The translations under genes and the position numbers were made by a program. Of a stretch of 64,000 bases of DNA, positions 4,964 through 25,335 are shown piece after piece. The DNA is taken from NCBI GenBank assembly GCA_963792965.1, contig CAWBYW010000007.1, positions 128,001-192,000 of the forward strand, read 5' to 3'. The stretch is from an uncultured delta proteobacterium. Its GTDB lineage: Bacteria > Desulfobacterota > Zymogenia > Zymogenales > Zymogenaceae. The number at the start of each line of letters is the position of its first letter. Position 1 is the stretch's first letter. Below the pieces are notes generated by a model that was not told where the DNA came from, searched no databases, and was given only the letters and a program-made list of their open reading frames with translations.

Positions 4964-5645
4964 ATGCACATTCCGGATGGTTTTCTTTCGCTGTCGGTGA
5001 GCGCGGCAACGTATGCTGTATCGGCCGTAATCGGCGCGATAACGCTCTTTCAGGCAAAGAAGAAATTCGCCGAGCGCTTCGTTCCCCTTGCGGGAATCTC
5101 GGCGGCCTTCATCTTCGCTGCGCAGATGATCAATTTTCCTATTGGCGGCGGCACGAGCGGGCATTTCCTTGGGGCGATGCTGGCGTGTATCCTGTTGGGT
5201 CCATCGGCGGGATTTTGGGTCATGATCCTCGTGCTGACCGTGCAGTGTCTCGTCTTCGCTGACGGCGGCATTACATCCCTCGGGGCTAATGCGCTAAACA
5301 TGGGGATCGTCGGCAGGTATCATATCCTACGGCATCTTTATGCTGGTTGTTGCGATTCTCCCGAGGGGGAAGGGTTCCTTCTTGTCGGCGGCCTTCGGTG
5401 TCTCATGGTTTGCAGTCGTGCTTGCGGCCTTCGTGTGCAGCATGGAGCTCGGCATATCGGGCACAATTCCCTTCAGGGTAGTAGTTCCCGTTATGATCGG
5501 CTCTCATATTCTCATCGGACTGGGCGATTCGATCGTGACAACGGCGGTCCTTTCCTACATGCTCAATGCCAGGCCCGACCTCGTCTATGCATGGGTCGAG
5601 GGCAGGGCCTCGTACATGGAAAAAGAGGTGACGGCAAATGGATGA
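4964..5645 (+). CDS. ECF nickel/cobalt transporter S component NikM/CbiM, one frameshift near 5312
   Basis: MHIPDGFL N-terminus, TSGHFLG and FADGG motifs; C-terminal half in ORF 5340..5645. Confidence 0.88.
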
Positions 5646-5949
5646 GAAGAAGAAGAATATCCGATTCGTCGTCATCGCCCTCTTCGTATGCCTTGCCGTT
5701 GCGTTTTTCCTGTCGCCCTTTGCCTCACCGAACCCCGACGGCCTCGAAAAGGCTGCGGAAAAGCTGGGTTTCGCGCACCTCGGCGAGGCGTCGGTTTGGG
5801 CGCACTCGCTTATGCCCGACTACAGGGTCCTGTTTCTCGGAGGAACGAGGGGCTCGGGGATGGTTGCGGGCCTCATCGGGACGCTGCTGGTATTTGCCCT
5901 CGGATGGGGGGTGGGGGCAATCCTCAAGAGGAAGAAGAAGGATACCTGA
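5638..5949 (+). CDS. PDGLE-domain membrane protein (NikN-like)
   Basis: SPFASPNPDGLE and MPDY motifs, two TM helices. Confidence 0.9.
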   Translation: MDEKKKNIRFVVIALFVCLAVAFFLSPFASPNPDGLEKAAEKLGFAHLGEASVWAHSLMPDYRVLFLGGTRGSGMVAGLIGTLLVFALGWGVGAILKRKKKDT

Positions 5950-5992
5950 GTACCATCGTGGCGCCGTGACGCGTGAAATCGGCACGAAATGA

Positions 5993-7999: not shown

Positions 8000-8038
8000 T
8001 TGACATATATAACGTTGTTCCGTACGATAACATCGTTC
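8000..8038 (+). promoter_or_regulatory. Sigma70 promoter of the TetR gene with candidate operator repeats
   Basis: TTGACA(8000)-N17-TACGAT(8023); ATAACGTTGTTC (8009) and ATAACATCGTTC (8027). Confidence 0.55.
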
Positions 8039-8054
8039 ACAAGCCGGCCTTTTG

Positions 8055-8720
8055 ATGAACCCAGTAGAACGTCCTGACATGGAAAACGTCATTGCCCTGC
8101 GGATTGAAGCGGAAAAACAAGAACGGATTGAGCGAATCCTGAACGCAGCACTGAAGCTCTTTCTGGAAAAAGGGTATCTCGGCGCTACTATGCGCGACAT
8201 CGCTCTTGAAGCCGAGCTTTCCACCGGGGCCATCTACGTCTATTTCTCCGGGAAAGACGAGATTTACGAAAAAGTCTGTGAAGAGGCGTTCCTGGTCGTT
8301 ATCGGTCTTATCAAGGAGGCGGCCTCGATAGGGGGCGCACCAAAAGATCGCATACGGGCAATCGCTCACCAATATGTTACCTTCTATACCGACTATGCCG
8401 AGTATTTCGAAATGCTCACGTTCCATGATCTCGGTTTTACTAAACGCGGTCAATCGGAACATCTCAGAGAACGGCTCAAGGATTTGACCGCGCAGGCCGT
8501 GAGTATCATCGAAGCCGTCGTCGTGGACGGAGTAGCCACCGGGGATTTTTCATCAGACCTCGACAGCACCCAGGCAAGTTTCAACCTTTGGGCGGGATTG
8601 GAGGGTGTTCTCATCCTCGATATGATGGGGTATCTCAAGAGCTTTAATCTGGATCTGGAAAAGGTCGTACTGTCTCAGCTGGAAATATTGCTCACGGGCG
8701 TCATTGCAAGAGCCCGGTAA
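8055..8720 (+). CDS. TetR/AcrR family transcriptional regulator
   Basis: ILNAALKLFLEKGY.ATMRDIA.EAELSTGAIYVYFSGKDEI helix-turn-helix. Confidence 0.93.
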   Translation: MNPVERPDMENVIALRIEAEKQERIERILNAALKLFLEKGYLGATMRDIALEAELSTGAIYVYFSGKDEIYEKVCEEAFLVVIGLIKEAASIGGAPKDRIRAIAHQYVTFYTDYAEYFEMLTFHDLGFTKRGQSEHLRERLKDLTAQAVSIIEAVVVDGVATGDFSSDLDSTQASFNLWAGLEGVLILDMMGYLKSFNLDLEKVVLSQLEILLTGVIARAR

Positions 8721-8828: not shown

Positions 8829-10115
8829 ATGACTATGGGCGCCCAACTTACCAAGGATCAGCTGAATGAGATAAAGAAACAAGCGCTGGATGACTATTCC
8901 CGGTATGTCAATCCCCAGAAAGCACGGGTATTAAAGAACGCCGGGCTTGACATTATCGAGGGTAAGCGGGAGGGAGCGGCGGTATGGGATATCACGGGTA
9001 AGAAGTACATCGACTGTATCACGTCGGCCGGATCGTTCAATGTCGGGAGAAGGAACCCCGAGATCATTGCCGCCTTGAAGCAGGCGCTTGACGAATACGA
9101 TCTGGGCGTCTTTCTCCTCTGCAGCAAGCCCAAGGCGGACCTGGCCAAAAGGCTCGCGGAGATCACCCCGGGCGACCTCCAGTACGTCATGTACGGGTCG
9201 GGAGGCGGAGAAGCCAACGACTTCGCCATCAAGCTCGCCCGCGGGTACACGATGAAGAATGAAGTCATCTCAACGATCAAAGCATATCACGGCCATACCG
9301 GATTTTCACTTGCCGCCATCGGTCGGGAGGAATACAGAAAGCCATTCGGCGCGATGGTCCCGGGGTACAAACACGTCCCCTATAACAACCTCTCCGCAAT
9401 GGAAGAGGCGATCACCGAGGATACCGCCTGCGTGATCATTGAGCCGGTTCAGGGGGAGGGGGGCATCTACCCCGCCTCGGACGACTACATGAAGGGGCTC
9501 AGAAAGATTTGCGACGACCACGAAGTACTCCTCATCTTCGACGAGATCCAGACGGGATTCGGACGCACGGGCAAGATGTTCTGTTGCGAATATTCGGGCG
9601 TCGTCCCGGACATCATGACCGTGGCCAAATCGCTGGGCGGCTCCATCTACCCGATATCGGCCACGATATACCGCGGGGAGCTCGGGGACTTCGTGATGAC
9701 GCACGCCTTCACCCACCTGTCCACGTTCGGGGGCTCGGACCTCGGGTGTATCGTGGGGCTTGCCGTTATCGACTATATCACGAAGCACAAGCTGCCCGAG
9801 CACGCGGCAAAGATGGGCGAGCGCTTCCAGAAAGGGTTCGACGAGCTGTTAAAGAAGTATCCCGAGCTGCTCACGGAGGTCCGACGCAAGGGCCTCATGA
9901 TGGGCCTCCAGTATACCAACGACAGCATCGGGCCGCGGATGAGCTATCAGCTGGCCCAGAACGGCGTTATGGCGATCTATACGGGGAACGAGCCGTCGGT
10001 CATGCGCATCATGCCCTCGCTCGTCATAGAGCCCGACGAGGTCGATTTCGTAATCGAGGCCATCGATACGTCGATGGCCGAGATCATGAAACAGGGCGGC
10101 ATAGAGAAATATTAA
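8829..10115 (+). CDS. Class-III PLP aminotransferase (omega-transaminase-like), copy 1
   Basis: [37 protein letters not shown]. Confidence 0.93.
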
Positions 10116-10132
10116 GTCACAGGAGGTTTTTT

Positions 10133-10492
10133 ATGGCGACAGCGGACGAAATCTGGGAGGCCCTTGCCGACTTTACCGAGCAGTGTAACAGTAACAAACG
10201 GCTCAGGAAGATGCAAAGGGATTGGACGAAGGTTATGCACTTTAAGGCCTCGGATACGGGAGACTCCTTTACTATGAAGGTCGTCGAAGGCGAGATCGTC
10301 AAGAATGATCGGGGATCGATCGGGACTCCCGACATCATCGTCGAGACGGAGAGTGAGACGATGTGTGATATGTTCTGGGGAGATATCAATCCCACGCAGA
10401 AGTATCTCCGGGGCGAGATCAAGGTCAAGGGAACCCAGGAGGACGTCATGCGCATCGATGTCATCTCCGCGGTCATCTGGCCGGAGGTGTAG
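10133..10492 (+). CDS. SCP2 sterol/lipid-binding domain protein
   Basis: AGGAGG RBS; PDIIVETESETMCDMFWGDINPTQKYLRGEIKVKG fits the SCP2 pattern. Confidence 0.82.
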   Translation: MATADEIWEALADFTEQCNSNKRLRKMQRDWTKVMHFKASDTGDSFTMKVVEGEIVKNDRGSIGTPDIIVETESETMCDMFWGDINPTQKYLRGEIKVKGTQEDVMRIDVISAVIWPEV

Positions 10493-10493
10493 C

Positions 10494-11780
10494 ATGTCCA
10501 TTATCGATGAGATTCTCGCCCAGACCGACGTGGAAAAGATCAGGAAGGAAGCAGAAGAGAATTACAGAGAGTATGTAAACCCCTTCGCGCTTCGGATGTT
10601 TAAGAACGCGAGCCTCGACATCATCGAGGGAAAGCGAGAAGGGGCCTGTGTGTGGGACATCTCGGGCCAAAAGTACATCGATTGCGTTACGGGCGCGGGA
10701 ATCTTCAACGTCGGCAGACACAACGAGGAGATCGTCGAGGGGTTAAAGAAAGCCCTCAATACATATGATATGGGGGGCTGGATTTCCATCGTGCGCGAGC
10801 GAGGGCTTCTCGCAAAGAAGCTTGCCGAGATCACGCCCGGGGACCTCAAGTTTTCGCTCTTTTGCTGCGGCGGTGGGGAGGCTATCGAGGTGGCAATCAA
10901 GCTCGCGCGCGGCCATACCGACAAGACCGAAATCATCTGCATGGAAAACGGGTACCATGGGGTGACAGGGTTCGCATTGCCTGCAACGGGACGGGATGTC
11001 TACAAAGAGCCCTTCGCCCCCCTGACCCCCGGCTATAAGCACGTCCGATACAACGACATCGGCGCGGTGGAAGAGGCGATCACGGAGGAGACGGCCGCGG
11101 TGATGCTGGAGCCGATCCAGGGAGAGGGAGGCATTATCCCCGCACGCGATGAATACCTCCGTGATCTGAGAAAGCTCTGCACGGACAACGAGATCCTCCT
11201 TATTTTCGATGAAGTCCAGACGGGATTCGGCCGCACCGGGAAGATGTTCTGCGCCGAGCACAGCGGGGTGAATCCCGACATCATGGTGCTGGCGAAATCT
11301 CTCTCCGGGGGCCTCTATCCACTATCGTGCGCGATCTTTACCGAGGAGATCTCCGAATTCCTCATGACGCATCCCTTTATCATCATCAATTCATTCGGCG
11401 GCACGTCACTGGCGTGTTTGGTCGCCCTGGCGACGATCGAGTATATCCAGAAAAACGACCTCCCGGCCCACGCCCAGGCAATGGGACAGCGGTTCATGGC
11501 CGCCCTTGCGTCCCTTAAGGAAAAGTATCCTGAGCTCGTGCTTGACGTGCGGGGCAAGGGACTCATGCTCGGCATGGAGTTTCCCGAGGACAGTATCGGT
11601 CCGCGGATGGCATATCAGTTGAAGCAAAACGGCGTGATTTCGATCTATACGTTCAACAACCCGCGTATCATACGCATCATGCCGACCCTCGTTATCAACG
11701 AGAAGGAGGTCGATTTTGTTATCGAAGCCTTCGATAGATCGCTTGCCGAGATCAGGAGCCAGGAACAGAAGGTCAAATAG
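10494..11780 (+). CDS. Class-III PLP aminotransferase, copy 2
   Basis: [38 protein letters not shown]; clear paralog of 8829..10115. Confidence 0.93.
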   Translation: MSIIDEILAQTDVEKIRKEAEENYREYVNPFALRMFKNASLDIIEGKREGACVWDISGQKYIDCVTGAGIFNVGRHNEEIVEGLKKALNTYDMGGWISIVRERGLLAKKLAEITPGDLKFSLFCCGGGEAIEVAIKLARGHTDKTEIICMENGYHGVTGFALPATGRDVYKEPFAPLTPGYKHVRYNDIGAVEEAITEETAAVMLEPIQGEGGIIPARDEYLRDLRKLCTDNEILLIFDEVQTGFGRTGKMFCAEHSGVNPDIMVLAKSLSGGLYPLSCAIFTEEISEFLMTHPFIIINSFGGTSLACLVALATIEYIQKNDLPAHAQAMGQRFMAALASLKEKYPELVLDVRGKGLMLGMEFPEDSIGPRMAYQLKQNGVISIYTFNNPRIIRIMPTLVINEKEVDFVIEAFDRSLAEIRSQEQKVK

Positions 11781-11873
11781 TCACCGTATGCTCAAGAATG
11801 CCGACATCGGATTTGGTTACGTACATGTAGTTTTCTACCACTATGAAGGGAATACCCCTGCGAGGTGCGAATC

Positions 11874-13508
11874 ATGACAGAGCTCAGACGAGGGATCGGG
11901 CTGCGAACGATTGTCTCCACGGGAGCGGGCATGGCACTTGCCTCGGTTACCTATATATCATTTATCCAGCTGGCGAGTTACCTTACGGGGAATTCCGCCT
12001 GGATCGCCATTCTTACCGCAGGCCTCATGGCGGTCTTGGCGGGGTCATGCTTCTGTGAGCTGAATTCAATGTACCCGACCGCGGCGGGAATCAAGCTCTT
12101 CATCGAGCGTGCGTTCAACGAGCGTACCGCGATCGTCATCTCGGGGGTCTATGTCCTCGGGCAGCTTGCCATTGTCGGCGCCGAGATTTACATACTCTCT
12201 CAGGCGATATCCCAGGGGGTATCGTTTGTCCCGCCGATCGTCTGGGCGGCGGCCTGTGTCCTGGTTCTCCTCTACCTCAATTTCAGAGGAATCACTGTTG
12301 CCGGAATAGCCCAGGATATCCTCGCGTACACGATGTTTGTCGGCCTTATTGCGGTCTCCTTCTACGGGTTCTACACCATCGGTTTTCACATCACAAACCC
12401 GTTTACCATCGGCTCGTTCGACGGCTTTATCCAGGCCGTTGCCATCGGGATATCGACCTATATCGCCTTCGAGTGGGTCATCACCGTCTCGGAAGAAGTG
12501 ACCGACGTGAAGCTCGTGCCGAGAGGGATGATGATGGCCCTCGGTCTTTTGGCGATCACCTATGCCCTCTTTTCCACGGCCATGACCTCGGTCCTCGGCT
12601 GGGGGCTCCTCGCCCCGGTCATCTCTCCCGAGGGGATTCCGACCCCTCACGTCCTTTACGGCAAGTTCCTGCTGGGGAATTTCGGGCTCTACTTCATGAT
12701 CATCATGGGGCTGTTGGCGTCGACGACTTCGCTTAACGCCGGAATCATGACCGCCTCGCGGTTCATTTACGCCATGGCGCGGGATTGGTCGCTGCCGAAG
12801 TTCCTGGCAAGGCTCCATCCACGCTATGCAACCCCGTGGGTCGCCATGCTCGTTATCCTGGCGTATTGCGTGGCCGTGACGGTATATGGATTTCTAACCA
12901 ACTTCGTCCTCTCGTTGATCCTTATCATCGCCGCGTCGGAATGTCTGATCTATGTGGTGATGGCGCTATGCGTCATTCGGCTCCGTTACAAGGAGCCGGA
13001 CAAGGAGCGGAGTTTCAAGATAAAGGGGGGCCTCATCATTCCGATCATCGTCATCGTGATCTACAGCGTGGTGGCCGGATTTATCCTCTTCGGCCCGGTG
13101 AAACCCGAAGACCAGATGGATCAGCGTATCTGTCTCTTCTTCATCGTCGGGCTTTTTATCCTTAACACGGTGTACGTATACACGGCCTGGCCGTGGCTTC
13201 GGGCGAAATATAAGAGGATCGCCGATGAGCGGGTACCGAGACGCCGACGGGCGGCCGCCGCGGATACCGGCGACGCGCAGGGATCAGGAAGCGTCGGCTC
13301 TGAAAGGGGTATGAGCCCCGTACGAGTTGTTCGGGTAGTGTGGCCGCGCCGGCCACCCAAGAGGACCGAGGGCGCAGTCAGAAGAGAGATTGAAGGATAC
13401 TGCGGCGGCCGATTGCGTTCAAGACCGATCGGCCGGCCGGAAGATAAAAACCATCAGCAAAAACGTTTCATGGAGGTATCGTTATGGCACTTTCCGATAC
13501 GGAGCTGA
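11874..13508 (+). CDS. APC-family amino acid/amine permease, copy 1 (C-terminal tail may be artefactually extended)
   Basis: About 12 TM segments; ELNSMYPTAAG, FEW...SEEV, SRFIYAMARD, HPRYATPW. Confidence 0.88.
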   Translation: MTELRRGIGLRTIVSTGAGMALASVTYISFIQLASYLTGNSAWIAILTAGLMAVLAGSCFCELNSMYPTAAGIKLFIERAFNERTAIVISGVYVLGQLAIVGAEIYILSQAISQGVSFVPPIVWAAACVLVLLYLNFRGITVAGIAQDILAYTMFVGLIAVSFYGFYTIGFHITNPFTIGSFDGFIQAVAIGISTYIAFEWVITVSEEVTDVKLVPRGMMMALGLLAITYALFSTAMTSVLGWGLLAPVISPEGIPTPHVLYGKFLLGNFGLYFMIIMGLLASTTSLNAGIMTASRFIYAMARDWSLPKFLARLHPRYATPWVAMLVILAYCVAVTVYGFLTNFVLSLILIIAASECLIYVVMALCVIRLRYKEPDKERSFKIKGGLIIPIIVIVIYSVVAGFILFGPVKPEDQMDQRICLFFIVGLFILNTVYVYTAWPWLRAKYKRIADERVPRRRRAAAADTGDAQGSGSVGSERGMSPVRVVRVVWPRRPPKRTEGAVRREIEGYCGGRLRSRPIGRPEDKNHQQKRFMEVSLWHFPIRS

Positions 13509-14326
13509 AAAGCCTTACGGAGAAAGCCCACCAGATCAGAAGGGACATCATCCAGACCCTCGTCTGGTCCGGCGGCGGACACGCCGGGGGCTCTCTTTCC
13601 CAGGCCGATATTTTGGTGGCCCTCTACTACAAATATCTCAACATCGACCCGAAACGCCCCGACTGGCCCGACCGCGACAGGGTTATCCTCTCCAAAGGAC
13701 ACGGAGGGGTCGGGTTTGCGCCGATCCTTGCCGACAAGGGGTATTTCGACAAAGAGCTTCTCAAGGGGTTCAATCATACCGGATCCCCCTTCGGGATGCA
13801 CCTGGACAGCCTGAAGGTCAAGGGAGTGGATGCCTCGACAGGGTCGCTGGGCCACGGCCTGTCCATCTCGGTCGGGCTTGCCCTCGGCGCAAAGCTCAAG
13901 AAGAAAAAATGGCTCACCTGGTGCATCATGGGCGACGGGGAGCAGGCCGAAGGGAGCGTCTGGGAGGCGGCGATGGCGGCATGCCACTACAAGATCGGCA
14001 ACCTCAAGGCGATCATCGATAACAATAAGTTCTGCATCGATGGGGCCTGCGAAGACATCATGTGCATCGAGCCGCTCAAAAAGAAATGGGAGTCGTTCGG
14101 CTGGAAGGCCTTCGAGGTCGACGGGCACGACTTCAAGGACCTGTGCGGCGGGATCGACAAGGCCATCGCGCACAAGGATGGGCCGTGCGTCATCATCGCC
14201 CACACGATTAAGGGGAAGGGCGTCGACTTCATGGAGGACCAGGCGGCGTGGCACTACGGCGGGCTGGACGCGGATAAGACCAAGAAGGCCCTCGAATCGA
14301 TCGATCGGATGTATGCTAAAAAATAA
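13484..14326 (+). CDS. Transketolase, N-terminal ThDP-binding subunit
   Basis: GHAGGSLS, DRVILSKGH, STGSLGHG, GDGE..EGSVWEA, DGHD, TIKGKG. Confidence 0.93.
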   Translation: MALSDTELKSLTEKAHQIRRDIIQTLVWSGGGHAGGSLSQADILVALYYKYLNIDPKRPDWPDRDRVILSKGHGGVGFAPILADKGYFDKELLKGFNHTGSPFGMHLDSLKVKGVDASTGSLGHGLSISVGLALGAKLKKKKWLTWCIMGDGEQAEGSVWEAAMAACHYKIGNLKAIIDNNKFCIDGACEDIMCIEPLKKKWESFGWKAFEVDGHDFKDLCGGIDKAIAHKDGPCVIIAHTIKGKGVDFMEDQAAWHYGGLDADKTKKALESIDRMYAKK

Positions 14327-14343
14327 AGAAAAGGAGGTACGCC

Positions 14344-15364
14344 ATGGCTGAGCAGGCTGGAGGCTTGACATATACGATTTACGACGCCGACAAGATGACG
14401 GCGGCCGAGATTTATGGCGAGGTATTGACCCAACTGGGAGGTCAACGCCCCGAGATCGTGGGGCTGACGGCCGACCTGGCCAAATCCACCAAGATCGGTG
14501 CGTTCGGGCAGAAGTACCCGGACAGGTTCTTCAACGTGGGCATCGCCGAGCAGAACATGTTCGGTATCGGCGCGGGTCTCGCGCTGGCGGGCTTCACGCC
14601 GTTCATCTCGACGTTTGCGATCTTTGTATGTACACGGGCCTCGGAACAGGTGAGAACCGACATCTGCTACCAGAAGCTCAATTGCAAGATCATCGCAACC
14701 CACTCGGGCATATCCTTCGGGCAGGCCGGGACGACTCACCACTGCACGGAGGATCTGGCGATCATGCGGTCATTTGCGAACATGACCGTCATCGCGCCGT
14801 CCGACGGTCTGGAGACCGCCAAAGCGGTGCAGGCGTGCGTTGACTGGAAGGGTCCCGTCTATATCAGGATCGGACGTGGCTTCGAGCCCCGTGTCAACAA
14901 AGACGATAAGTTCGAGTACAAAATCGGAAAAGCCCGGGAGATGTGTTCCGGCACGGACGTGACGGTTATCGCATGCGGCTCTCCGGTCGTCGCGGCGGTA
15001 GATGCGGCCGACTTCCTCAAGAAGAACGATAAGCTCTCGGTGCGGGTCCTCAACATGCACACCGTGAAGCCGATCGACCGCGACGCCATCGAGAAGGCGG
15101 TCAAGGAGACCAGAAGGATCATCACCTTCGAGGACCACAGCATTATCGGAGGACTCGGCAGCGCGGTCGCCGAAGTCATCGCGGACCTCGGCAAAGGGAT
15201 GCGCCTTCAAGCGCGTGGGACTCCCCGATGAGTTCTCGCCCGTCGGGTATCCGGAGGACCTCTACCATCACTATAAGCTTGACTCCGAGGGGGTCATCGA
15301 GACGGTGAGAGAGGTGCTCGGAAAGGAGTACGAGGAAGACGAAGACTGGCAGGATGAATTTTAA
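14344..15364 (+). CDS. Transketolase, C-terminal subunit, one frameshift near 15197
   Basis: ADLAKST, VGIAEQN, GPVYIRIGR, EDHSIIGGLGSAVAE; the shifted frame continues KRVGLPDEF...EDEDWQDEF* at 15364. Confidence 0.9.
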
Positions 15365-15380
15365 ACGATAAGGAGGCGAT

Positions 15381-16157
15381 ATGCCCGACAAGGATTATGT
15401 CCTGGCAAGGATCATGCTGAGGGCCGCCGTGCCGCTTGCGAAGACCTTGATCGAAGACGACCCGAAGATGCGCGAAAAGTACCGGGGATTCAATAAGGTG
15501 GTCCAGTTCGAGGTGAAGGGGAGCGAAGATCTCGTCACCCAGCTCAAATTCGAGGACGGTATCCCCAAGCCGATCTTCGAACGGGACCCAAACCCCGACC
15601 TTGCCTTCATCTTTAAGAGCGCCAAGCAGCTCAACGCCTTTTTCGGAGGCAAACCCGCCATTCCGAAGATCAAGGGGCTCACGAAGGTCGGCGTCCTCCT
15701 CAAGGTCGTCCCGCTCCTGCTGGGCCTGACGCTGCTGCTCCCCACGAAGATCCCCAAGGATCCTGCGAAACGGAGGCTCAAGGTAAAGCTCCTCTTCTAT
15801 ATGCTCAGCTCGGCGCTGTCGCAGATGAACAAGGCCGGGGACGAGGAGTTCGTCGAGTTCACCAAGAAAATGCCCGACCGTGTCATCCAGTGGTCCTGCC
15901 TTCCCGATGGGCCCTTTGCCTACCTGCGCATCAAATACGGAAAGACAAAAGCCGGCAGAGGCGTCTATACGAGGAGGAGGCCGTTTATCGACATGCAGTT
16001 CAACGGCGTGGATGCCGCCATACAGGTTCTCACCAACCAGGTAGACCTCGTCCAGGCTATTATGGACGGGAAGCTCAACCAGGAAGGATCGCCGGAATAC
16101 GGCAAGGACCTCGGCGCCTTCATGCTCAAGATCGACGCGTGGATGAAGGAAGTGTAG
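15381..16157 (+). CDS. Hypothetical protein, probably two SCP2-like domains
   Basis: AGGAGG RBS; VVQFEV...PDLAFIF and IQWS...DMQFNGVDAAIQVL...AIMDGKLNQEG resemble SCP2 folds. Confidence 0.6.
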   Translation: MPDKDYVLARIMLRAAVPLAKTLIEDDPKMREKYRGFNKVVQFEVKGSEDLVTQLKFEDGIPKPIFERDPNPDLAFIFKSAKQLNAFFGGKPAIPKIKGLTKVGVLLKVVPLLLGLTLLLPTKIPKDPAKRRLKVKLLFYMLSSALSQMNKAGDEEFVEFTKKMPDRVIQWSCLPDGPFAYLRIKYGKTKAGRGVYTRRRPFIDMQFNGVDAAIQVLTNQVDLVQAIMDGKLNQEGSPEYGKDLGAFMLKIDAWMKEV

Positions 16158-16253: not shown

Positions 16254-17611
16254 ATGAGCCAACTCAAACGGGTGGTGAAGCTCAGGACGGTGGTAGCCAC
16301 GAGCGCCGGCATGGCAATGGCAACCTCCTGTTATACGGCCGGGGTCAAGGTTGCCATGTTGGTCGCGGGCAACTCCGCGTGGATATCCATCGCCGTCGCG
16401 GGTTTCATGTGCATCCTGTCGGCCATGTGCTTTTCAGAGCTCAACGGGATGTACCCGTCCGCCGCGGGCATTCGGCTCTTCATCGAGCGAGCCTTCGGCG
16501 AGAAGGCGGCCATCTCTATCGGGGCCTTCTACCTCGGCTGCGCAATCGCGATGGTGGGGCCGGAAACGCACATCCTCAGCAGTGTCATCGGCACGATCGC
16601 TCCGGGCGTTCATCCTTTCGTGTGGGTAGTGGTCTTTTTGGGCTTGATCGCCCTCATCAATCTGAGGGGGGTCAAGGTCGCCGGGTGGGCCGAGGATATC
16701 ATGACCTATGTCATGCTCACCTTCATGGTATTCGTGGGCATCTACGCGATCGGTAAGTTCGGGGTTTCATCCAAAGAGCTCTTCAACACCGGCGGGGTGA
16801 CCAACGTCTTTCAGGCGGCGGCGGTCGGCGTATTCCTCTTCGTCGGATTCGAGTGGGTGACACCGCTGGCGGAGGAAGTGCTTGACAGCAAGATGATCGC
16901 CAAAGGGATGATGTGGGCCATCGGGCTGTTATGCCTCACCTACGTCTTGTTCATTACGGGGATGACCGCCGTGGTCCCCAAGGAGACACTTGCGGTGTCG
17001 GCAATCCCGCACATCATCGTGGGGAACGCCCTGTTCGGGAAGGCCGGCATCTATATGTTCGTCGTGATGAGCTGCCTGGCCTCGCTGACCTCGTACAACG
17101 CGGGATTTTTGAATTTTTCGCGCTTCATGTACGCCATGGGACGGGATAACGTGCTGCCGCGGATATTCTCACGCATCAGCGACCGGTACGCCACGCCGTG
17201 GTTTGCGGTCCTCTTTGCTTTTCAGTGTCGCTTCTGATATCGCTCTACATCCACCTCACGGGTAAATACATGACACTGATTATGGTGGCGGCGGCTATTG
17301 AGGTTATTATCTATACGGTGATGGCGCTGTCGGTGATAAAGCTCCGTTTCTCGCTCAAAGACGCCCGAAGACCCTATCGGGTCCCAGGCGGGTTGGTTAT
17401 CCCGATCGTTGCGATCGTCTTTTTCCTGATACTGCTGGTGGGCATCTATTCGGAAGATATTACGGTCCTGTTCATCATGGCCGGGGTTTTTATCGTTTGC
17501 CTCCTCTATACCCTTGTGGTGCCCCCGCGCCTGAGGGCCGCCTATGAAAAAAGGATGTCCGAGCGGGTTCCGCGGAGAAGGAGACCGGGAGGGCCGGAGT
17601 CGGGAAAATAG
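16254..17611 (+). CDS. APC-family permease, copy 2, one frameshift near 17220
   Basis: ELNGMYPSAAG, VGFEW..LAEEV, SRFMYAMGRD; C-terminus in ORF 17198..17611. Confidence 0.86.
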
Positions 17612-17644
17612 CGTAGTATTGAATCGCGATATAAGGAGTGAAAG

Positions 17645-18743
17645 ATGAAAATCGGAGTTCCTAAGGAGATAAAGGCCGAGGAGAATCGGGTGGCGATCAC
17701 CCCCGCGGGCGTATCCGCGCTGACCAGCCACGGCCATACGGTCTTCGTGGAAAAAGGGGCCGGCCTCGGCAGCGGGATAACGGACCAGGAATATATTGCC
17801 GCGGGGGCTCAGAGCCTTCCGACGAAGGAGGACGTTTGGAAACAGGCCGAGATGATCATCAAGGTAAAGGAGCCGCTCGGCCCGGAATTTGACCTGATCC
17901 GGGACCATATCCTCTTCACCTATTTCCACCTGGCGGCGGATATCGAGCTGACCAAAAAACTTCTGGCGACCAATGTTAAGGCCGTCGCCTACGAAACGAT
18001 CCAGCTTGCCGACGGGTCGCTGCCGCTGCTGGCCCCGATGAGTGAGGTCGCGGGACGGCTCTCGATCCAAATGGGCGCGCGCTGTCTCGAGTCGATCGGG
18101 GGAGGGAAGGGGATCCTCCTGTCGGGTGTCTCGGGAGTGCCGCCGGCAAAGGTGGTGGTCCTCGGTGCCGGGATCGCCGGCTCCAACGCCTGTTACGTGG
18201 CCGTGGGCATGGGGGCGAGGGTAAGCATCCTGGATATCAATCCCGCAAAGCTGCGCTACATCCACGACGTCATGGGAGGCCACGTCGTGACCGTCATGTC
18301 GAACCTCGCCAATATCGAAGAAGAGGTATTGTCGGCCGACCTCGTCGTCGGGACGATCCTCATTCCCGGCGCAAAGGCCACAAAGCTGGTCACTCGGGAG
18401 ATGATAAAGAAGATGAAGAGAGGCTCGGCCATCGTGGACATCTCGGTGGACCAGGGCGGGTGCGTGGAGACCACTCACCCGACGACGCATAAAGATCCGA
18501 CGTATATCGTCGACGGCGTTGTCCACTACGCGGTGGCAAACATGCCGGGGGCGGTTCCGCGCACCTCGACCTTTGCGCTGACAAACTCGACGCTCTCCTA
18601 TGCCCTCGATATCGCCAATAAGGGACTGGACCGCGCAATTGCGCGAGAGCCCGTCCTTGAAGAAAGGGGTCAATATCCTGAATAAGAAACTGACGTACAA
18701 GGCGGTCGCCGAGGCCTTCAACATGAGCTGGGTGGAGATTTAG
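17645..18743 (+). CDS. ald: Alanine dehydrogenase, frameshift near 18659
   Basis: [45 protein letters not shown]; true end KKGVNI...WVEI* in the shifted frame. Confidence 0.93.
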
Positions 18744-18813: not shown

Positions 18814-19758
18814 ATGATGCTCAACGCGGCGGCCAAGATAAAAGGGATCCTTGACGAATACGTAATCGGACACAACGATATCAAGGAGGGAATCCTCCTT
18901 GCTTTGATAGCGCGGGAACACGTCTATATCGAGGGCGCCCCGGGCACGGCAAAGACGATGCTTGCCGAGCTCACCGCCAAGGCCGCCAATCTCAACTTCT
19001 ATTTCTATCAATTCCACCGCGATACGCGGTTGACGGAGCTGATCGGCGACTACATCATCTGCCGCGAGCCGCAGTCGGGAAACGGGGACGCGGAGCTGAT
19101 CAGCCAGCGACTCGTCCCCGGTGGTATCCTTACGGCGCAGCTGGCCGTTCTTGACGACATAACCCGTGCGCCGGGAGAAGCCCTCAATATCCTCCTTCGG
19201 CTTCTCAACGAGCGGGAATATAAAGGGAGCCGCCTCCCGCTGCTCACGGCGATAGCCACCAGTAATCCCACCCAGGATGACTACTACAACGAGCCGCTGG
19301 ATCTGGCTAACCTTGACCGGTTCACGATTCAGCTCCGGTCGTCGGGGCTCATCAACCGGGGCAACTGGGACGAAGCCGTCTCGGTAATGAATTACTACAC
19401 CGACCACACGTTCGACAAGGAGTCGGTCACGGGTTTCGAGAATGCCCTCTTTGCCGATCCGGACCGCTACCTGTTGGATATCACCGTTCCGGCAACGGTC
19501 CGGCAGCGACTCATTGGATTCCTCGAGCATCTGGTTGTCAATTTCCATCTCAACGAGACCAATTCGCTCCTCACCGACCGGACGTTTCTCGTCAAGGCTA
19601 TCCGCATTCTCAAGGCCAAGGCGGTGCTTGAGGGAAGAAAAGAGGTCGTCCCCCAGGACCTTTCCGTCCTCAGCTACCTCACGACGTTCCGGGTCCCTCC
19701 GGAAGTAGGGATGCGCCTGGACGAAATCCTCATGGATCTGGTCGAAAAAAAAAACTAA
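18814..19758 (+). CDS. MoxR/RavA-type AAA+ ATPase
   Basis: Walker A GAPGTAKT, Walker B AVLDDI, ALNILL..LNER, ATSN, LDRF. Confidence 0.88.
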   Translation: MMLNAAAKIKGILDEYVIGHNDIKEGILLALIAREHVYIEGAPGTAKTMLAELTAKAANLNFYFYQFHRDTRLTELIGDYIICREPQSGNGDAELISQRLVPGGILTAQLAVLDDITRAPGEALNILLRLLNEREYKGSRLPLLTAIATSNPTQDDYYNEPLDLANLDRFTIQLRSSGLINRGNWDEAVSVMNYYTDHTFDKESVTGFENALFADPDRYLLDITVPATVRQRLIGFLEHLVVNFHLNETNSLLTDRTFLVKAIRILKAKAVLEGRKEVVPQDLSVLSYLTTFRVPPEVGMRLDEILMDLVEKKN

Positions 19759-20699
19759 ATACGCCCGAGTTCCAAGAGCGTGAGGAACAACCCCAGCCGC
19801 AGGAAGTAGAGGAAGGCGCGGCCGAGCCGTCCGAGCTTTCCGACAAAGACTTCGAGCAATTCCCCGATAAGTCCTTCGTCGTAAAAGACCTGCTTCCCAC
19901 TCGGGAAAAGACCGACGATAACGTCGTCGACAGGGGCGAGGATGAAGTCAATAAGGAAACGCTCAGCGACGTCCGGCCGATACTCAAGGTCATCGAAGGC
20001 AATATCGTTCAAAAGACCGAAGACCTCATGAAGGATTCCGGCGGCTCGCCGCGAAGCTGGTCGCGCCTTGAGGATTTCTCCCACTTTGACGACGTGGACC
20101 CGGTCGACTCGACGGTGTGGCTTTCTCACCTCAATCCGAAAATGCCGATGGCGCTCCTCCGCAAGCGAAAGCTCAAGGGCGGAGCACTGGCTATCGTGCG
20201 CGATATCAGCTCTTCCATGACCGGGAGCCGCGCTCAGTGGTCTTCCATGCTGATCCTTGGGCTTGTCCGTATCGCGCGAAAGAGACGGATGCGGCTTGGC
20301 TATCTCGAGTTCAATCACCAATCGACAAAATTCCTGAGGAACAGGACTTTCTTCAACCGTTCGTATACCCGTATCGGCGATATTGCATCGCGATGTCGAT
20401 GCAGCGGGTTCACCAACTACCAACTCCCGCTTCTGGACGCCATCAAGGAGTTCAAAGACGTGTCCGACAGGATAAAGCACGTCGTGTTTATTACTGACGG
20501 AAGACCCACGGAAGGGGACCGGGAGATCAGCCGCGAGATAAAGATCGCCCAGAAGGATGGAATAGCGGTCCATTCTATCTATATCGGGAAGAAGGAATCC
20601 CCGGAGATCCTCAGGACGCTGTCGAAGAAGACGGGAGGGGCCCATTTTCAGGTAGGGCCGGATGAGAACGGGAGTCTGAAGCTGAAAACATTGACATAA
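19743..20699 (+). CDS. Acidic linker plus vWA domain, open in the -1 frame from the A10 run
   Basis: Stop-free frame from 19743 (LNTPEFQEREEQPQPQEVEE...); MIDAS DISSSM, GFTNY, VFITDGRP. Confidence 0.82.
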   Translation, partial: RKKKLNTPEFQEREEQPQPQEVEEGAAEPSELSDKDFEQFPDKSFVVKDLLPTREKTDDNVVDRGEDEVNKETLSDVRPILKVIEGNIVQKTEDLMKDSGGSPRSWSRLEDFSHFDDVDPVDSTVWLSHLNPKMPMALLRKRKLKGGALAIVRDISSSMTGSRAQWSSMLILGLVRIARKRRMRLGYLEFNHQSTKFLRNRTFFNRSYTRIGDIASRCRCSGFTNYQLPLLDAIKEFKDVSDRIKHVVFITDGRPTEGDREISREIKIAQKDGIAVHSIYIGKKESPEILRTLSKKTGGAHFQVGPDENGSLKLKTLT

Positions 20700-20740
20700 T
20701 GCTGATATTATTATGCATGCCTAATAATTGAGGTTTGCCG

Positions 20741-21883
20741 ATGACACACGACGAGATTCTCAAGGAAATGAAGGCGGTGGCCCAAGACCCCGTCGCTGCG
20801 GCTCGGAAATTCAAGCAGAAATATAACAGGCCGGTCTTCGGTTACTTCTGCACCTACACCCCCGAGGAGATCATTCACGCCGCGGGGGGCATTCCGTTCA
20901 GGATCATCGGACAGAAGAAGGGCGTCGTCTGTTCCGATGCCCACCTCCAGAGCTATTCCTGCTCGCTGGTGAGAACAGGGCTCGATATGGCGCTGACAAA
21001 ACAGCTTGATTTTCTGGAGGGGGCCGTTTTCCCGCATACGTGCGATTCCATACAGCGTCTCTCCGACATCTGGCGAATAAACACGGACTACTCGTTTCAC
21101 GCCGATATCGTGCTGCCCGTTAAACTTCAGACCGAAAGTGCGAGAACCTACCTGATCGAAGAGCTCACGTCCTTTCTCAAGAAACTGGAGGCGTATACAA
21201 AGCATGAGATCAGCGTGCCCTCGCTCAACGAAGCCATCGGGCTCTATAACACCATGAGGACCAACCTCACGCGACTTTACGCGGCCAAGCAAGAGAATCC
21301 CGAAATAATTCATTCCAGCGCCGTCAACGACTGCGTCCAGGCCGCCATGTTCATGCCCGTGGAAGAACACAACTCTCTCATGGGCGAGCTGCTCTCGCTC
21401 ATCGGGAAGAAGAACACCAGCGCACGGCCGACCAGGATATTTCTTGTCGGAAACCTGTGCGTCTTCGACGAGATATACGACTATATCGAGGCGGCAGGGG
21501 GGACCGTCGTCGGCGACGACATGTGCACGGGCTCGCGCTATTTTGCCCTTAACGCCGACGGTAAATCGTCAAAGCCGATCCAGGCCCTTGCGGATCGGAT
21601 CATCAACCGGCCGATATGCGCCGCAAAACACAATCCCCTGCTTGACCGCGGGGTCTACCTGAAAGGGATAGTGCAGGATAGCGGGGCGCAGGGGGTCATC
21701 TTTCTGATGCTTAAATTCTGTGATCCGCACTCCTACGACTATCCGTACCTGAAGGAGTCGATGGACGAATTGAAGGTGCCCCATATGCTGCTCGAGACGG
21801 AGATGGACAATCCCTCACTCGGGCAGATCAAGACCCGTATTGAAGCGTTCATGGAGATGATAGGAGACAGCCGTGGCAGATGA
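20741..21883 (+). CDS. 2-hydroxyacyl-CoA dehydratase / benzoyl-CoA reductase family subunit
   Basis: CTYTPEEIIHAAG, PHTCDS, DDMCTGSR, KFCDPH, TRIEAF. Confidence 0.88.
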   Translation: MTHDEILKEMKAVAQDPVAAARKFKQKYNRPVFGYFCTYTPEEIIHAAGGIPFRIIGQKKGVVCSDAHLQSYSCSLVRTGLDMALTKQLDFLEGAVFPHTCDSIQRLSDIWRINTDYSFHADIVLPVKLQTESARTYLIEELTSFLKKLEAYTKHEISVPSLNEAIGLYNTMRTNLTRLYAAKQENPEIIHSSAVNDCVQAAMFMPVEEHNSLMGELLSLIGKKNTSARPTRIFLVGNLCVFDEIYDYIEAAGGTVVGDDMCTGSRYFALNADGKSSKPIQALADRIINRPICAAKHNPLLDRGVYLKGIVQDSGAQGVIFLMLKFCDPHSYDYPYLKESMDELKVPHMLLETEMDNPSLGQIKTRIEAFMEMIGDSRGR

Positions 21884-23114
21884 AAAGATAAGAGATCCTG
21901 AAAAGGAAAAGAAGAAGTTTCGTTCGGCTAAGGCCATGAGAGAGCTGATGACGCGCTACTACACCGAGTCCAAGATCGCGGAGAGTAGCGGCAACAAGAA
22001 GATCGCCTGGATCACCTCGGGCGGGCCGGTGGAAGTGTTGCACGCCATGGACGTCATCCCTATCTACCCGGAGAACCACGGGGCGATGCTCGGGGCGTCC
22101 AAGATGAGCGTGGAGATGTGCGGCGTCGCCGAGGACATGGGGTACTCCCGTGACCTCTGCTCGTACTTCCGCGGAGATATCGGGAGCGCCGTGACCAAGA
22201 AGAGCCCGATCCCCGGCGGGTTGCCGAAGCCCGATTTCGTCATCGCGTGTAATAACATCTGCGGCACCGTCACGAAGTGGTACGAGGTGCTGGCGCGCTT
22301 CTTTAACGTCCCGATGTTTCTCATAGACACGCCGTTCATCCATCAGCACAAATCGGAAGCCGGTCTGCGATACGTGAAGGCCCAGATGGAGGAGTACATT
22401 CGATTCCTGGAAGAGCAGTGCGGAAGGTCCATGGACAGGGACCGCCTCAAGGAAGTCGGCAAGCTCTCGGTGGAAGGGGTTCGGCTCTGGAATGAAGTGC
22501 TCTCTACCTGCGAGCACAGGCCCGCACCGATGAGCTGTTTTGACGCATTCTTCTTCATCGCCCCGATCGTGACGCTCAGGGGTACGCAGGAGTGCAACGA
22601 TTTCTACGTCGGCCTCCTGGCCGAGCTGAAGCAGAGGATAGCGGATGGGGTGGCGGCGGTCGATAACGAAAAGTATCGTCTCCTCTGGGACAATATACCG
22701 GTCTGGTTTGCGCTTAGGCCCCTCTCGGAGCTTTTTGCGTCAAGTCAGGCGTGTCTCGTCGCCGATACCTACACCAACGCCTGGACCAGGGCGTGCCTCG
22801 ATCCGGATAACCTCATCGAGACGATGTCCCGCTCGTACACCGAGGTTTATCTCAACATCGACATCGAGCTGATGGTCGCCGAGATAGAGGCCCTCATTAA
22901 ACGCTACTCGGCCGACGGCTTTGTCATTCACTCAAATCGCTCGTGCAAACCCTATTCCCTGGGTCAGCTGGACATCGCGCGAATAATTCAGAAAGATCTC
23001 GGGATCCCGACCGTCATCGTCGAGGCGGATATGACCGACGAGCGGTCATACTCCGAGGCGCAGACGAGGACACGCGTCGAGGCTTTCATCGAGAACCTCA
23101 AGCACTCGGCGTGA
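21873..23114 (+). CDS. 2-hydroxyacyl-CoA dehydratase / benzoyl-CoA reductase family subunit
   Basis: YPENH, GYSRDLCSY, PKPD..NNIC, HSNRSCK, TRVEAF. Confidence 0.88.
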   Translation: MADEKIRDPEKEKKKFRSAKAMRELMTRYYTESKIAESSGNKKIAWITSGGPVEVLHAMDVIPIYPENHGAMLGASKMSVEMCGVAEDMGYSRDLCSYFRGDIGSAVTKKSPIPGGLPKPDFVIACNNICGTVTKWYEVLARFFNVPMFLIDTPFIHQHKSEAGLRYVKAQMEEYIRFLEEQCGRSMDRDRLKEVGKLSVEGVRLWNEVLSTCEHRPAPMSCFDAFFFIAPIVTLRGTQECNDFYVGLLAELKQRIADGVAAVDNEKYRLLWDNIPVWFALRPLSELFASSQACLVADTYTNAWTRACLDPDNLIETMSRSYTEVYLNIDIELMVAEIEALIKRYSADGFVIHSNRSCKPYSLGQLDIARIIQKDLGIPTVIVEADMTDERSYSEAQTRTRVEAFIENLKHSA

Positions 23115-23430: not shown

Positions 23431-25335
23431 GTGGCATCCGGCTACTGGAACAAGATCCTGAGGGTCAACCTCTCCGATAAAACCTACCGTGTCGAAGACC
23501 TCGACGAAGGGTTCATGAGAAAGTATCTGGGGGGGAGAGGGCTCGCCCTCCCCTTTTTCCTGAGGGAGACCGCGCCGGGTCTCGACCCCTTTTCACCAGC
23601 CAATCCGATCATCTTTGCCTGCGGAGCCCTGACGGGGGCCGCAGGACCCGCCATTCCACGCTTTACCGCCGTATCGAAATCACCCCTGACCAATGGGCTC
23701 GGGGCATCGGAGGCCGGGGGATTCTGGGGCCCTGAGTTGAAGAACACGGGGTATGACGCCCTCATTGTAGAGGGGAAGGCGCCCAAACCGGTCTATCTTT
23801 TCGTTAGTGAGGAGCGGGTCGAGTTTCACGATGCGGCCGGAGTGTGGGGAAAGGAGACCGGCCCGGCCCAGGAAGGCATCAGGGGGGAGCTTGGAGACGG
23901 ACGGGCGCGTGTCCTTATCATCGGCCCGGCGGGAGAAAGGCTCGTGCGGTTTGCGGGCATCGGAAACGAGCTTGCCCACTATAACGGTCGAAACGGACTT
24001 GGGGCCGTGATGGGGAGCAAAAACCTCAAGGCGGTGGCTGTCCGCGGCACAAAGAAGCTTCCGATTGCAGACGAGGCGGCGCTCAGAGAGATCGCCCGGG
24101 AGTTCGCGCGAACGTTCAAGGACAATAAACAGGGATGGACGCTCTTTGAATACGGCACCCCCGCTACGGTCGATGCCCTCGTCGGCTTCGGTGCCCTCCC
24201 GTCCAGAAACTGGGAGACAGGGGTATCGGAGAATGACAAGGGCCTCTTCTGCGATCGGTATAACGAGGAGATCCTCGTGTCTCGAAAGGGCTGCTTTGCC
24301 TGTCCGATACGATGCAAGCGCGTGGTGAAAGTCTCGGAGGGGGATCTGGCCGTGAACGGGGACTACGGGGGACCCGAATACGAGACGATCGCGGCCCTCG
24401 GCTCCAATTGCGGTATATACGATCACCGGGTCATCGCCAAGGCCAACGAGTCGGCCGACCGGTTTGGGATGGATACGATCTCGCTCGGCATGACGATCGC
24501 GTTTGCCATGAGATGCTACCGGGAACGTCTCCTGACGAAAGCGGATACGGGCGGGATCGATCTCGAATTCGGGAGCCGTGATGCGCTGCTTTCCGTCATC
24601 GAGATGACGGCTCGGCGGGAGGGAGTAGGGGACCTCATCGCCGAGGGTTCGGTCAGGATGGCGCGCATCGTGGGTAAAGGCTCGGAGCGATTTCTTGTCG
24701 AGACAAAGGGCCAGGAGGTGGCGATGCACGACCCCCGCATCAAAACGGGGGTCGGGATAGGCTACGCCGTCTCCGATATCGGGGCCGATCATATGGTCTC
24801 TCCTCACGACCCGTTCTTCACGGACGAAAAGTCGCCGTCGTTTATCGGCTCCCGTATCCTCGGGATCAAAGAACCATCGGGCCTTTTCGAGATGACGAAC
24901 AACAAGGCGGTTAACTTCGGCATCGCCGCGCGCTACTGGAGGATGCAGGACTGCCTCGGCTGCTGTCACTTCGGGTTTATGCCGCGCGGCCCCATGGAAA
25001 TCGACAAGCTCATTGAGATGATAAACGCGGTCACCGGCTGGAACGTCGGCATGGCGGAGCTCCTCACGGCGGGGGAGCGAGCGATCAGCCTGTCACGGAT
25101 ATATAATCATCGGGAAGGTTTTTCCCGGCAGGATGACCGCCTTCCCGCGAAATACCACGAGAATATGGCAGACGGTCCCTACCAGGGAAAACTCGGCATC
25201 GACGGCAAGAAGTTCGAGGATCTCCTCTGTTCATACTACGAGGAATTCGGGTGGGATCCCGAGACCGGCTACCCAACGCTGGAAAAGATACGCGAACTGG
25301 GTCTCGATGGGTTCACTCCTGGGGCCGGCTCGTAG
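23431..25335 (+). CDS. Aldehyde:ferredoxin oxidoreductase (tungstopterin AOR family)
   Basis: KILRVNLS, SKSPLT, GRNGLGAVMGSKNLKA, CFACPIRC, GPEYET, GMDTIS, DDRLP. Confidence 0.93.
   Translation: MASGYWNKILRVNLSDKTYRVEDLDEGFMRKYLGGRGLALPFFLRETAPGLDPFSPANPIIFACGALTGAAGPAIPRFTAVSKSPLTNGLGASEAGGFWGPELKNTGYDALIVEGKAPKPVYLFVSEERVEFHDAAGVWGKETGPAQEGIRGELGDGRARVLIIGPAGERLVRFAGIGNELAHYNGRNGLGAVMGSKNLKAVAVRGTKKLPIADEAALREIAREFARTFKDNKQGWTLFEYGTPATVDALVGFGALPSRNWETGVSENDKGLFCDRYNEEILVSRKGCFACPIRCKRVVKVSEGDLAVNGDYGGPEYETIAALGSNCGIYDHRVIAKANESADRFGMDTISLGMTIAFAMRCYRERLLTKADTGGIDLEFGSRDALLSVIEMTARREGVGDLIAEGSVRMARIVGKGSERFLVETKGQEVAMHDPRIKTGVGIGYAVSDIGADHMVSPHDPFFTDEKSPSFIGSRILGIKEPSGLFEMTNNKAVNFGIAARYWRMQDCLGCCHFGFMPRGPMEIDKLIEMINAVTGWNVGMAELLTAGERAISLSRIYNHREGFSRQDDRLPAKYHENMADGPYQGKLGIDGKKFEDLLCSYYEEFGWDPETGYPTLEKIRELGLDGFTPGAGS

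Follow-up and report, generated by a model that had tools for sequence, protein, structure and literature searches.

The 64,000-nucleotide stretch analysed here (positions 128,001 to 192,000 of contig CAWBYW010000007.1, GenBank assembly GCA_963792965.1; hereafter, the window) comes from an uncultured delta proteobacterium of the family Zymogenaceae. At positions 13484-16157 it encodes a split transketolase-fold enzyme together with a predicted tethered SCP2 carrier. We favour, with moderate confidence, the interpretation that this enzyme cleaves a long-chain 1,3-dihydroxy-2-ketone derived from a deaminated sphingoid base. The case for a lipid substrate is built on gene context, predicted docking of the carrier and the regulon, and not on the active-site substitutions alone.

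The α chain, a diphosphate-binding domain of 280 amino acids, is encoded at 13484..14326 (+) and matches 6YAK (E 5e-78). The gene for the β chain lies directly behind it at 14344..15364 (+), contains the Pyr and C-terminal domains, and matches 6YAJ (E 1.8e-73). We found the Transketolase_N and Transket_pyr/Transketolase_C domains, the fold, all five catalytic histidines (H26, H66, H100, H261 and H473 in the numbering of E. coli TktA), E411 and the GDG...N cofactor motif, which place the pair in the thiamine diphosphate transketolase family in its split form. The β chain of a relative (L002) superimposes on 6YAJ with a template modelling (TM) score of 0.82-0.83 and a root-mean-square deviation (rmsd) of 2.2-2.9. 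The NCBIfam transketolase models score under their cut-off, partly since each chain has half the model length. Another class is defined by a Phe or Tyr at the H100 site and a single chain (PMC13663882); here the His is retained, there are two chains, and a separate DXS is encoded at C7:481k.

The E. coli TktA reference sequence was taken from NC_000913 (K-12). Alignments with the split transketolase of C. hydrogenoformans (6YAJ/6YAK) and with human transketolase, free of gaps across the motifs, show three changes: TRE to AAE, GED to GQA, and GHP to MHL. The first two fall in the β-chain motifs TAAEIYG (14398-14418) and THSGISFGQAGTTHH (14698-14742), both within the first 133 codons; Ala21 (14404..14406, +) occupies the site of R358, and Ala128 (14725..14727, +) that of D469. 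The third falls in the α chain (13796..13804, +) at the equivalent of G99-H100-P101, where G99 becomes M105 and P101 becomes L107. Relative to TktA, the β chain thus carries R358A, L466F, E468Q, D469A and Q474H, and the α chain carries the clade changes R91N, G99M, P101L and G262Y, while H26, H66, H100, D155, N185, H261, L382, S385, E411, F434, F437, H461, H473 and R520 are retained. A previous sequence-only reading of this DNA had reported the loss of D469 and R358 and had suggested alignment to TktA and split transketolases as a check; both losses are borne out. The same reading had listed the change of GHP to MHL among lost recognition residues; the substitution is present, but H100 itself is kept and no recognition residue is lost at this motif. 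A canonical sugar-phosphate transketolase has Asp469 in a GEDG motif, which is Ala here. Of R358, S385, H461 and R520, which we take to be the phosphate ligand set of transketolase, three are kept and R358 is Ala. Domains and residues together place the enzyme within the transketolase family yet outside its canonical sugar-phosphate type.

In order to determine how widely these changes are conserved, we examined the best 120 of 6417 homologs at E ≤ 1e-60, the protein from the window included. At the D469 site 117 of them have Ala and three have Gly, so that an Asp occurs in none, and in no row of the 120 does a compensating Asp or Glu stand within three sequence positions of it. The R358 site is Ala in 97, Arg in 11, Ser in 10 and Thr in two; its loss does not define the clade, because 11 homologs have the Arg. 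S385, H461, R520, E411, H473, Phe at 466 and His at 474 are invariant (120/120), and a Lys or Arg adjoins S385 in 89 of the 120. Among the α chains (n = 62), H26, H66, H100, H261, D155 and N185 are kept in every one, and Asn at 91, Met at 99 and Tyr at 262 are likewise invariant. Ordinary split transketolases from the host's phylum keep both R358 and D469 (7/7). Sequencing error as the source of the substitutions is ruled out by the same changes across homologs. The pattern indicates a pocket that is maintained but remodelled, in which the Asp that binds the 2-hydroxyl of the aldehyde is gone and most of the phosphate site is kept.

These residues do not by themselves identify the substrate. 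A quick tree of 54 rows places the window's clade, with 36 rows (SH-aLRT 94), inside a wider D469-less branch (SH-aLRT 87), which also includes a paralog from the host genome and plasmid split transketolases that have Tyr at 469 and lie beside SDR and shikimate-dehydrogenase-like genes. A Rhizobium split transketolase with Leu at 469 lies beside an FGGY kinase and a sugar ABC transporter. No close member of the clade (≥60% identity) was found on plasmids among 334 records. Loss of D469 was considered as a diagnostic of a lipid substrate and rejected, being common to split transketolases of sugar clusters; it appears to mean "not the standard aldose" rather than "lipid". Engineered D469 variants are described as having gained activity on aliphatic and aromatic aldehydes (PMC10787763, PMC7661550, 10.1101/719906). 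The sequence-only reading had proposed an enzyme adapted to a non-phosphorylated aliphatic substrate. One part of this stands: the likeliest special substrate is hydrophobic, an aldehyde or a ketol that carries no 2-hydroxyl; the other part sits poorly with the three phosphate ligands that are kept. The residues alone are not proof of an aliphatic substrate, because S385, H461, R520, the catalytic His residues and E411 are kept, some homologs keep R358, and sugar-cluster transketolases lose D469. Nor do the substitutions give the independent support for an amino-diol hypothesis that had been claimed for them, given the wider D469-less branch and the retained phosphate ligands and H100.

The case is made by gene context. 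We surveyed the best 80 of 590 genome loci, which bear labels from about nine phyla; cultured bacteria with the cassette include Lutispora saccharofermentans, Draconibacterium aestuarii and Oceanirhabdus seepicola. A gene for a 258-amino-acid tandem SCP2 protein lies directly downstream of β in all 77 assessable loci, and a class III FumI-like aminotransferase gene lies directly upstream of α in 57 of 72 (absent in 15; eight further loci are cut off). A second tandem SCP2 paralog precedes the FumI-like gene in 52 of 64. Accessory neighbors across the 80 loci include VOC proteins (23), Zn dehydrogenases (8), ene-reductases (7), alanine dehydrogenase (7), aldehyde dehydrogenases (5) and aldehyde:ferredoxin oxidoreductase (4).

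The tandem SCP2-fold (sterol carrier) protein of the window (15381..16157, +; 258 amino acids) was modelled with a predicted local distance difference test (pLDDT) score of 94.5 as two SCP2 folds (against SCP2 8AF2: Z 11.2, rmsd 3.1, 113 aligned residues), and the top 11 rows of a fold search are all SCP2-type domains. We regard it as a putative lipid carrier and predicted third subunit. Its predicted docking site is an acidic C-terminal tail of the β chain (15335..15361, +, read in the frame that follows the frameshift described below). The tail, with Trp and Asp, is present in 118 of 119 homologs and in none of seven canonical split transketolases or four chains of the second paralog (paralog B); W335 and D337 are invariant in 68 rows. 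One β homolog of 338 amino acids (P0081) ends in a tandem-SCP2 C-terminus rather than the acidic tail and is either a short fusion or an assembly chimera. A model of the heterocomplex, another check suggested by the sequence-only reading, was built with three chains: the window's α chain, the intact β chain of L002 and the window's carrier. In this model, β residues 333-339 dock at the carrier's conserved residues 14-21, 144-151 and 185-199, and the interface coincides with invariant residues. The carrier-tail complex scores 0.69, against 0.16 for the best control; in a benchmark, 116 of 157 solved pairs and two of 215 mismatched pairs scored at least as high. At least 64% of contacts recur between docking runs, and the partner pLDDT is at least 85. 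The model supports binding of the carrier to the acidic tail and does not demonstrate it.

The partner aminotransferase points to the nature of the substrate. The best solved relative of the cassette transaminase is FumI (6HBS, E 3.7e-93; next best family 3e-46), and so it is for a transaminase encoded on contig C5 of the host genome (E 7.4e-106; next best family 4e-53). This partner, whose gene lies outside the window, is closer to FumI than to glutamate-semialdehyde aminomutase. FumI is described as using pyruvate to deaminate C2 of hydrolysed fumonisin B1, which resembles sphinganine (PMC3136697); related enzymes are covered in PMC9858248. FumI-like genes were found in 10 of 10 genomes of the host's family. 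The host's FumI-like gene and second carrier are on C5, a pair linked likewise in the five relatives whose region was read. Because these two genes lie on C5, the link between FumI-like transaminase and transketolase in the host is one that we infer from relatives. The C5 locus (C5:27153-32879, L081) encodes an E1α/β fusion with an N-terminus that is SCP2-like by eye, then an enoyl-CoA hydratase, the tandem SCP2 paralog and the FumI-like transaminase. The SCP2-E1α/β fusion also precedes a putrescine-type transaminase in two other loci (L200 and L228). Another row of host genes (C16:39760-43600, L082), kept in relatives, consists of citrate synthase, a second FumI-like transaminase, a VOC protein and an enoyl-CoA hydratase.

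We infer the substrate, direction and acceptor of the reaction from this context, and the proposed route would run as follows. A ceramidase would free the sphingoid base, and the FumI-like transaminase would move its 2-amino nitrogen to pyruvate, with alanine dehydrogenase recycling the alanine. Thiamine would then attack the C2 ketone while the retained H100 and H473 hold the C1 hydroxyl; this pair is described as holding the terminal hydroxyl of the donor (bioRxiv 10.1101/719906). Breakage of the C2-C3 bond would release hexadecanal or hexadecenal. D469 would not be needed, because the released fatty aldehyde has no 2-hydroxyl. The two-carbon unit would pass to an aldose phosphate held by the retained S385, H461 and R520, and the fatty aldehyde would then be oxidised.

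In other lineages, an operator is shared by the cassette and ceramidases. A palindrome precedes 21 of 47 cassettes. Applied to 15 unlinked ceramidase-family loci, an operator matrix built from the cassette sites alone scores 19-26 upstream of five (0 of 500 shuffles for each) and 12-14 upstream of three others (2-7 of 500 shuffles). In five genomes selected for having the site, an exact pattern derived from these sites gave 15 matches in total, one to four per genome, against one for the reversed control. The other matches lie in front of alanine dehydrogenase genes (twice), the cassette, a TetR gene accompanied by an FGGY kinase gene, class IV aminotransferase genes (twice), an amidohydrolase gene and an unknown gene. 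A ceramidase was found in 11 of 30 cassette genomes and in none of 14 controls.

Several observations weigh against cleavage of a sphingoid-derived ketone. A ceramidase was found in just those 11 of 30 genomes; no operator site is present at seven of the 15 ceramidase loci, among them all three from clostridia; and neither the window operon nor the C5 FumI-like locus has the ceramidase-linked operator. The host genome contains just one weak ceramidase-family match (E 1.7e-9), and no ceramidase adjoins the cassette among 111 proteins scanned (103 of 250 candidate neighbors and eight of the host genome). The window's own transaminases are of the putrescine type rather than the FumI type, and their module occurs without the transketolase in all 36 loci at 62-68% identity, 13 of which have full 8-kb flanks. 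FumI-like genes also occur in unrelated settings. The docking model uses a relative's β chain and custom alignments, outside the calibration of the tool. Almost all tested split transketolases are (S)-selective (PMC13663882). D-erythro bases are given as 2S,3R in PMC6148460, and an inverted selectivity or an epimerase would be required, because by stereochemical reasoning such a base would give a (3R)-ketodiol. On two plasmids FumI-like genes have other neighbors: a sugar kinase and class II aldolases in Novosphingobium (L167), and an E1α/β fusion and acetoin dehydrogenase E2 in Agrobacterium (L169). These neighbors are possible alternatives in aerobes for cleaving the deaminated ketol.

The strongest alternative, which we consider rather improbable, keeps the chemistry and changes the lipophilic substrate: in the host's family the enzyme would work with the neighboring putrescine-type transaminases and permeases, and its substrate would be another amino-alcohol, or aldehydes derived from primary amines, instead of a sphingoid base. 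The operon is headed by a promoter with a tandem palindrome and a TetR-family regulator (8010..8720, +); the palindrome itself (8010-8037), in the promoter of the TetR gene, is conserved, and its tandem form occurs once in the genome. A second module follows (8829..13300, +), with two class III putrescine-aminotransferase-like enzymes (8829-10115 and 10494-11780, +), a small SCP2 protein (10133-10492, +) and an APC permease. The order transaminase-SCP2-transaminase-permease-transketolase is conserved in the family loci examined, the host's FumI-like gene is unlinked, and an operator common to the window operon and the C5 locus was looked for and not found. Moreover, the FumI-like gene lies two genes from a different thiamine enzyme, the SCP2-E1α/β fusion, which could be its real partner. 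On the other hand, the transketolase and carrier nest in the clade supported in the quick tree, whose other members sit with FumI-like genes, and the second carrier paralog remains with the FumI-like gene on C5. Strong palindromes like the cassette operator also occur in the host genome away from the transketolase and FumI-like loci (C25:60494, C10:15776, C16:287817 and C12:6980).

We regard it as unlikely that the enzyme is mainly a sugar-phosphate transketolase with tolerated changes that replaces a missing housekeeping enzyme. No canonical transketolase was found in the host genome (89% complete) or in four relatives, and the slot expected for it by synteny is occupied by a glucokinase-like gene. 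The host genome has DAHP synthase-family genes, and searches for 6-phosphogluconate dehydrogenase, hexulose-phosphate synthase and phosphoketolase found none. The invariant S385, H461 and R520 fit this explanation, and the Lys or Arg beside S385 could substitute for R358. However, five other family genomes with a canonical transketolase still retain the cassette enzyme, and the carrier linkage and tail are left unexplained. A second split transketolase paralog, which lacks D469, R358 and the tail, is encoded on contig C13 (C13:156978-165111, L083) and was found in exactly the five family genomes without the canonical enzyme (probably a single event), which makes it a better stand-in. Its cluster combines two Zn dehydrogenases and an SDR with a glycyl radical enzyme that has a long N-terminal extension. 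A D469-less split transketolase, most simply the C13 paralog, probably handles sugar phosphates in host cells, because there is no canonical enzyme, DAHP synthase-family genes are present and no bypass was found. The window enzyme likely keeps some sugar-phosphate activity too, because the FumI-like gene lies elsewhere and the canonical enzyme was not found.

A reversed role in synthesis, in which a fatty aldehyde would receive two carbons from a ketose phosphate and be aminated from alanine to give sphingoid-like bases without serine palmitoyltransferase, seems to us quite unlikely. Both steps can run backwards and alanine dehydrogenase could provide the alanine, but the permeases, TetR repressors, aldehyde dehydrogenases, ene-reductases and co-regulated ceramidases indicate uptake and breakdown.

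The β gene of the window has one surplus base near 15193, which shifts the last ~55 codons and ends the open reading frame at 295 amino acids, against 335-339 in relatives. This base is likely an assembly error, because the relatives are intact and one close-relative contig (seven other letters in 150, depth about 3) lacks it. Unrelated window genes (4964-5992, 16254-17611 and 17645-18685) are also broken by frameshifts, as are genes on host contigs C5 and C13, pointing to indel errors in the host assembly. That the window copy is a decaying gene, with frameshift and substitutions both due to loss of function, is very improbable, since intact relatives have the same substitutions, the close contig lacks the extra base, and unrelated genes of the assembly are broken as well.

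Downstream of the carrier gene, the window encodes a second APC permease, split by a frameshift, and an alanine dehydrogenase (16254..18685, +; TIGR00518 above cut-off), which would regenerate the amino acceptor pyruvate. Further along the same strand, an aldehyde:ferredoxin oxidoreductase (23431..25335, +) is a candidate sink for the released aldehyde. The region between them (18814-23114) encodes a MoxR ATPase, a vWA protein and a 2-hydroxyacyl-CoA dehydratase-like pair, a row observed only in the host's family.

Among known systems, the C. hydrogenoformans enzyme (PMC7661550) shares the two-gene arrangement, the fold (44% identity), the thiamine motif and the catalytic His and Glu residues, but it keeps TRE, GED and GHP; the ordinary split transketolases that we checked have neither the acidic tail nor an SCP2 neighbor. 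The Thermotoga maritima split transketolase pQR2809 (PMC13663882), compared here by its published description, shows a natural loss of D469 (to Leu) and takes pentanal and phenylacetaldehyde; unlike the window enzyme, which keeps L382 and has Ala at D469, it has L382A, and its (S)-selectivity is moderate. The usefulness in biocatalysis proposed from the sequence is thus a fair point, but pQR2809 already sets a precedent. SqwGH, the sulfofructose transketolase, is likewise a two-subunit enzyme of anaerobes with a role in breakdown; according to PMC12890257, it cleaves 4-deoxy-4-sulfoerythrulose, a 1,3-dihydroxy-2-ketone without a C4 hydroxyl, with glyceraldehyde 3-phosphate as acceptor. By that description, its substrate differs from the one proposed here in being a small sulfonate made by isomerases, and no sulfoquinovosidase, such isomerases or sulfonate exporter was recognised in the window or among the 111 neighbors scanned. 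Sphingopyxis FumI, an aminopentol aminotransferase, resembles the cassette transaminase as its closest solved relative and in C2 deamination of a long amino-alcohol with pyruvate; it is less than 50% identical, and its activity was described in PMC3136697 on hydrolysed fumonisins, which have no C1 hydroxyl. The review PMC6148460 gives sphingoid-base degradation as a kinase plus a pyridoxal phosphate-dependent lyase. The sphingosine-1-phosphate lyase pathway makes the same C2-C3 cut and the same fatty aldehyde as the proposed route, but it yields phosphoethanolamine, whereas the proposed route would use no kinase and send two carbons to the pentose phosphate pathway. Our literature search, whose coverage left out most subscription papers, found no paper describing the cassette or the route.

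Tentatively, and with less confidence than for the cleavage itself, we suggest that the α/β transketolase with its tail-tethered carrier is (3R)-selective and forms the carbon-cleaving step of a kinase-free, lyase-free breakdown of sphingolipids in about nine phyla, mostly anaerobes, and could also serve as a sugar-phosphate transketolase where the canonical enzyme has been lost. Should the enzyme prove (3R)-selective with long aldehydes, it would offer a natural catalyst for the enantiomer seldom made by the transketolases tested, and together with its transaminase it could build D-erythro amino-diols. The proposal also provides a defined function to test for more than 1000 unnamed carrier proteins (1039 matches). 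The cassette was found in eight of 301 genomes sampled from one Oscillospiraceae-labelled family. If true, a transaminase-transketolase route would explain the recycling of sphingolipids by anaerobes of sediments, digesters and, in some cases, the gut.
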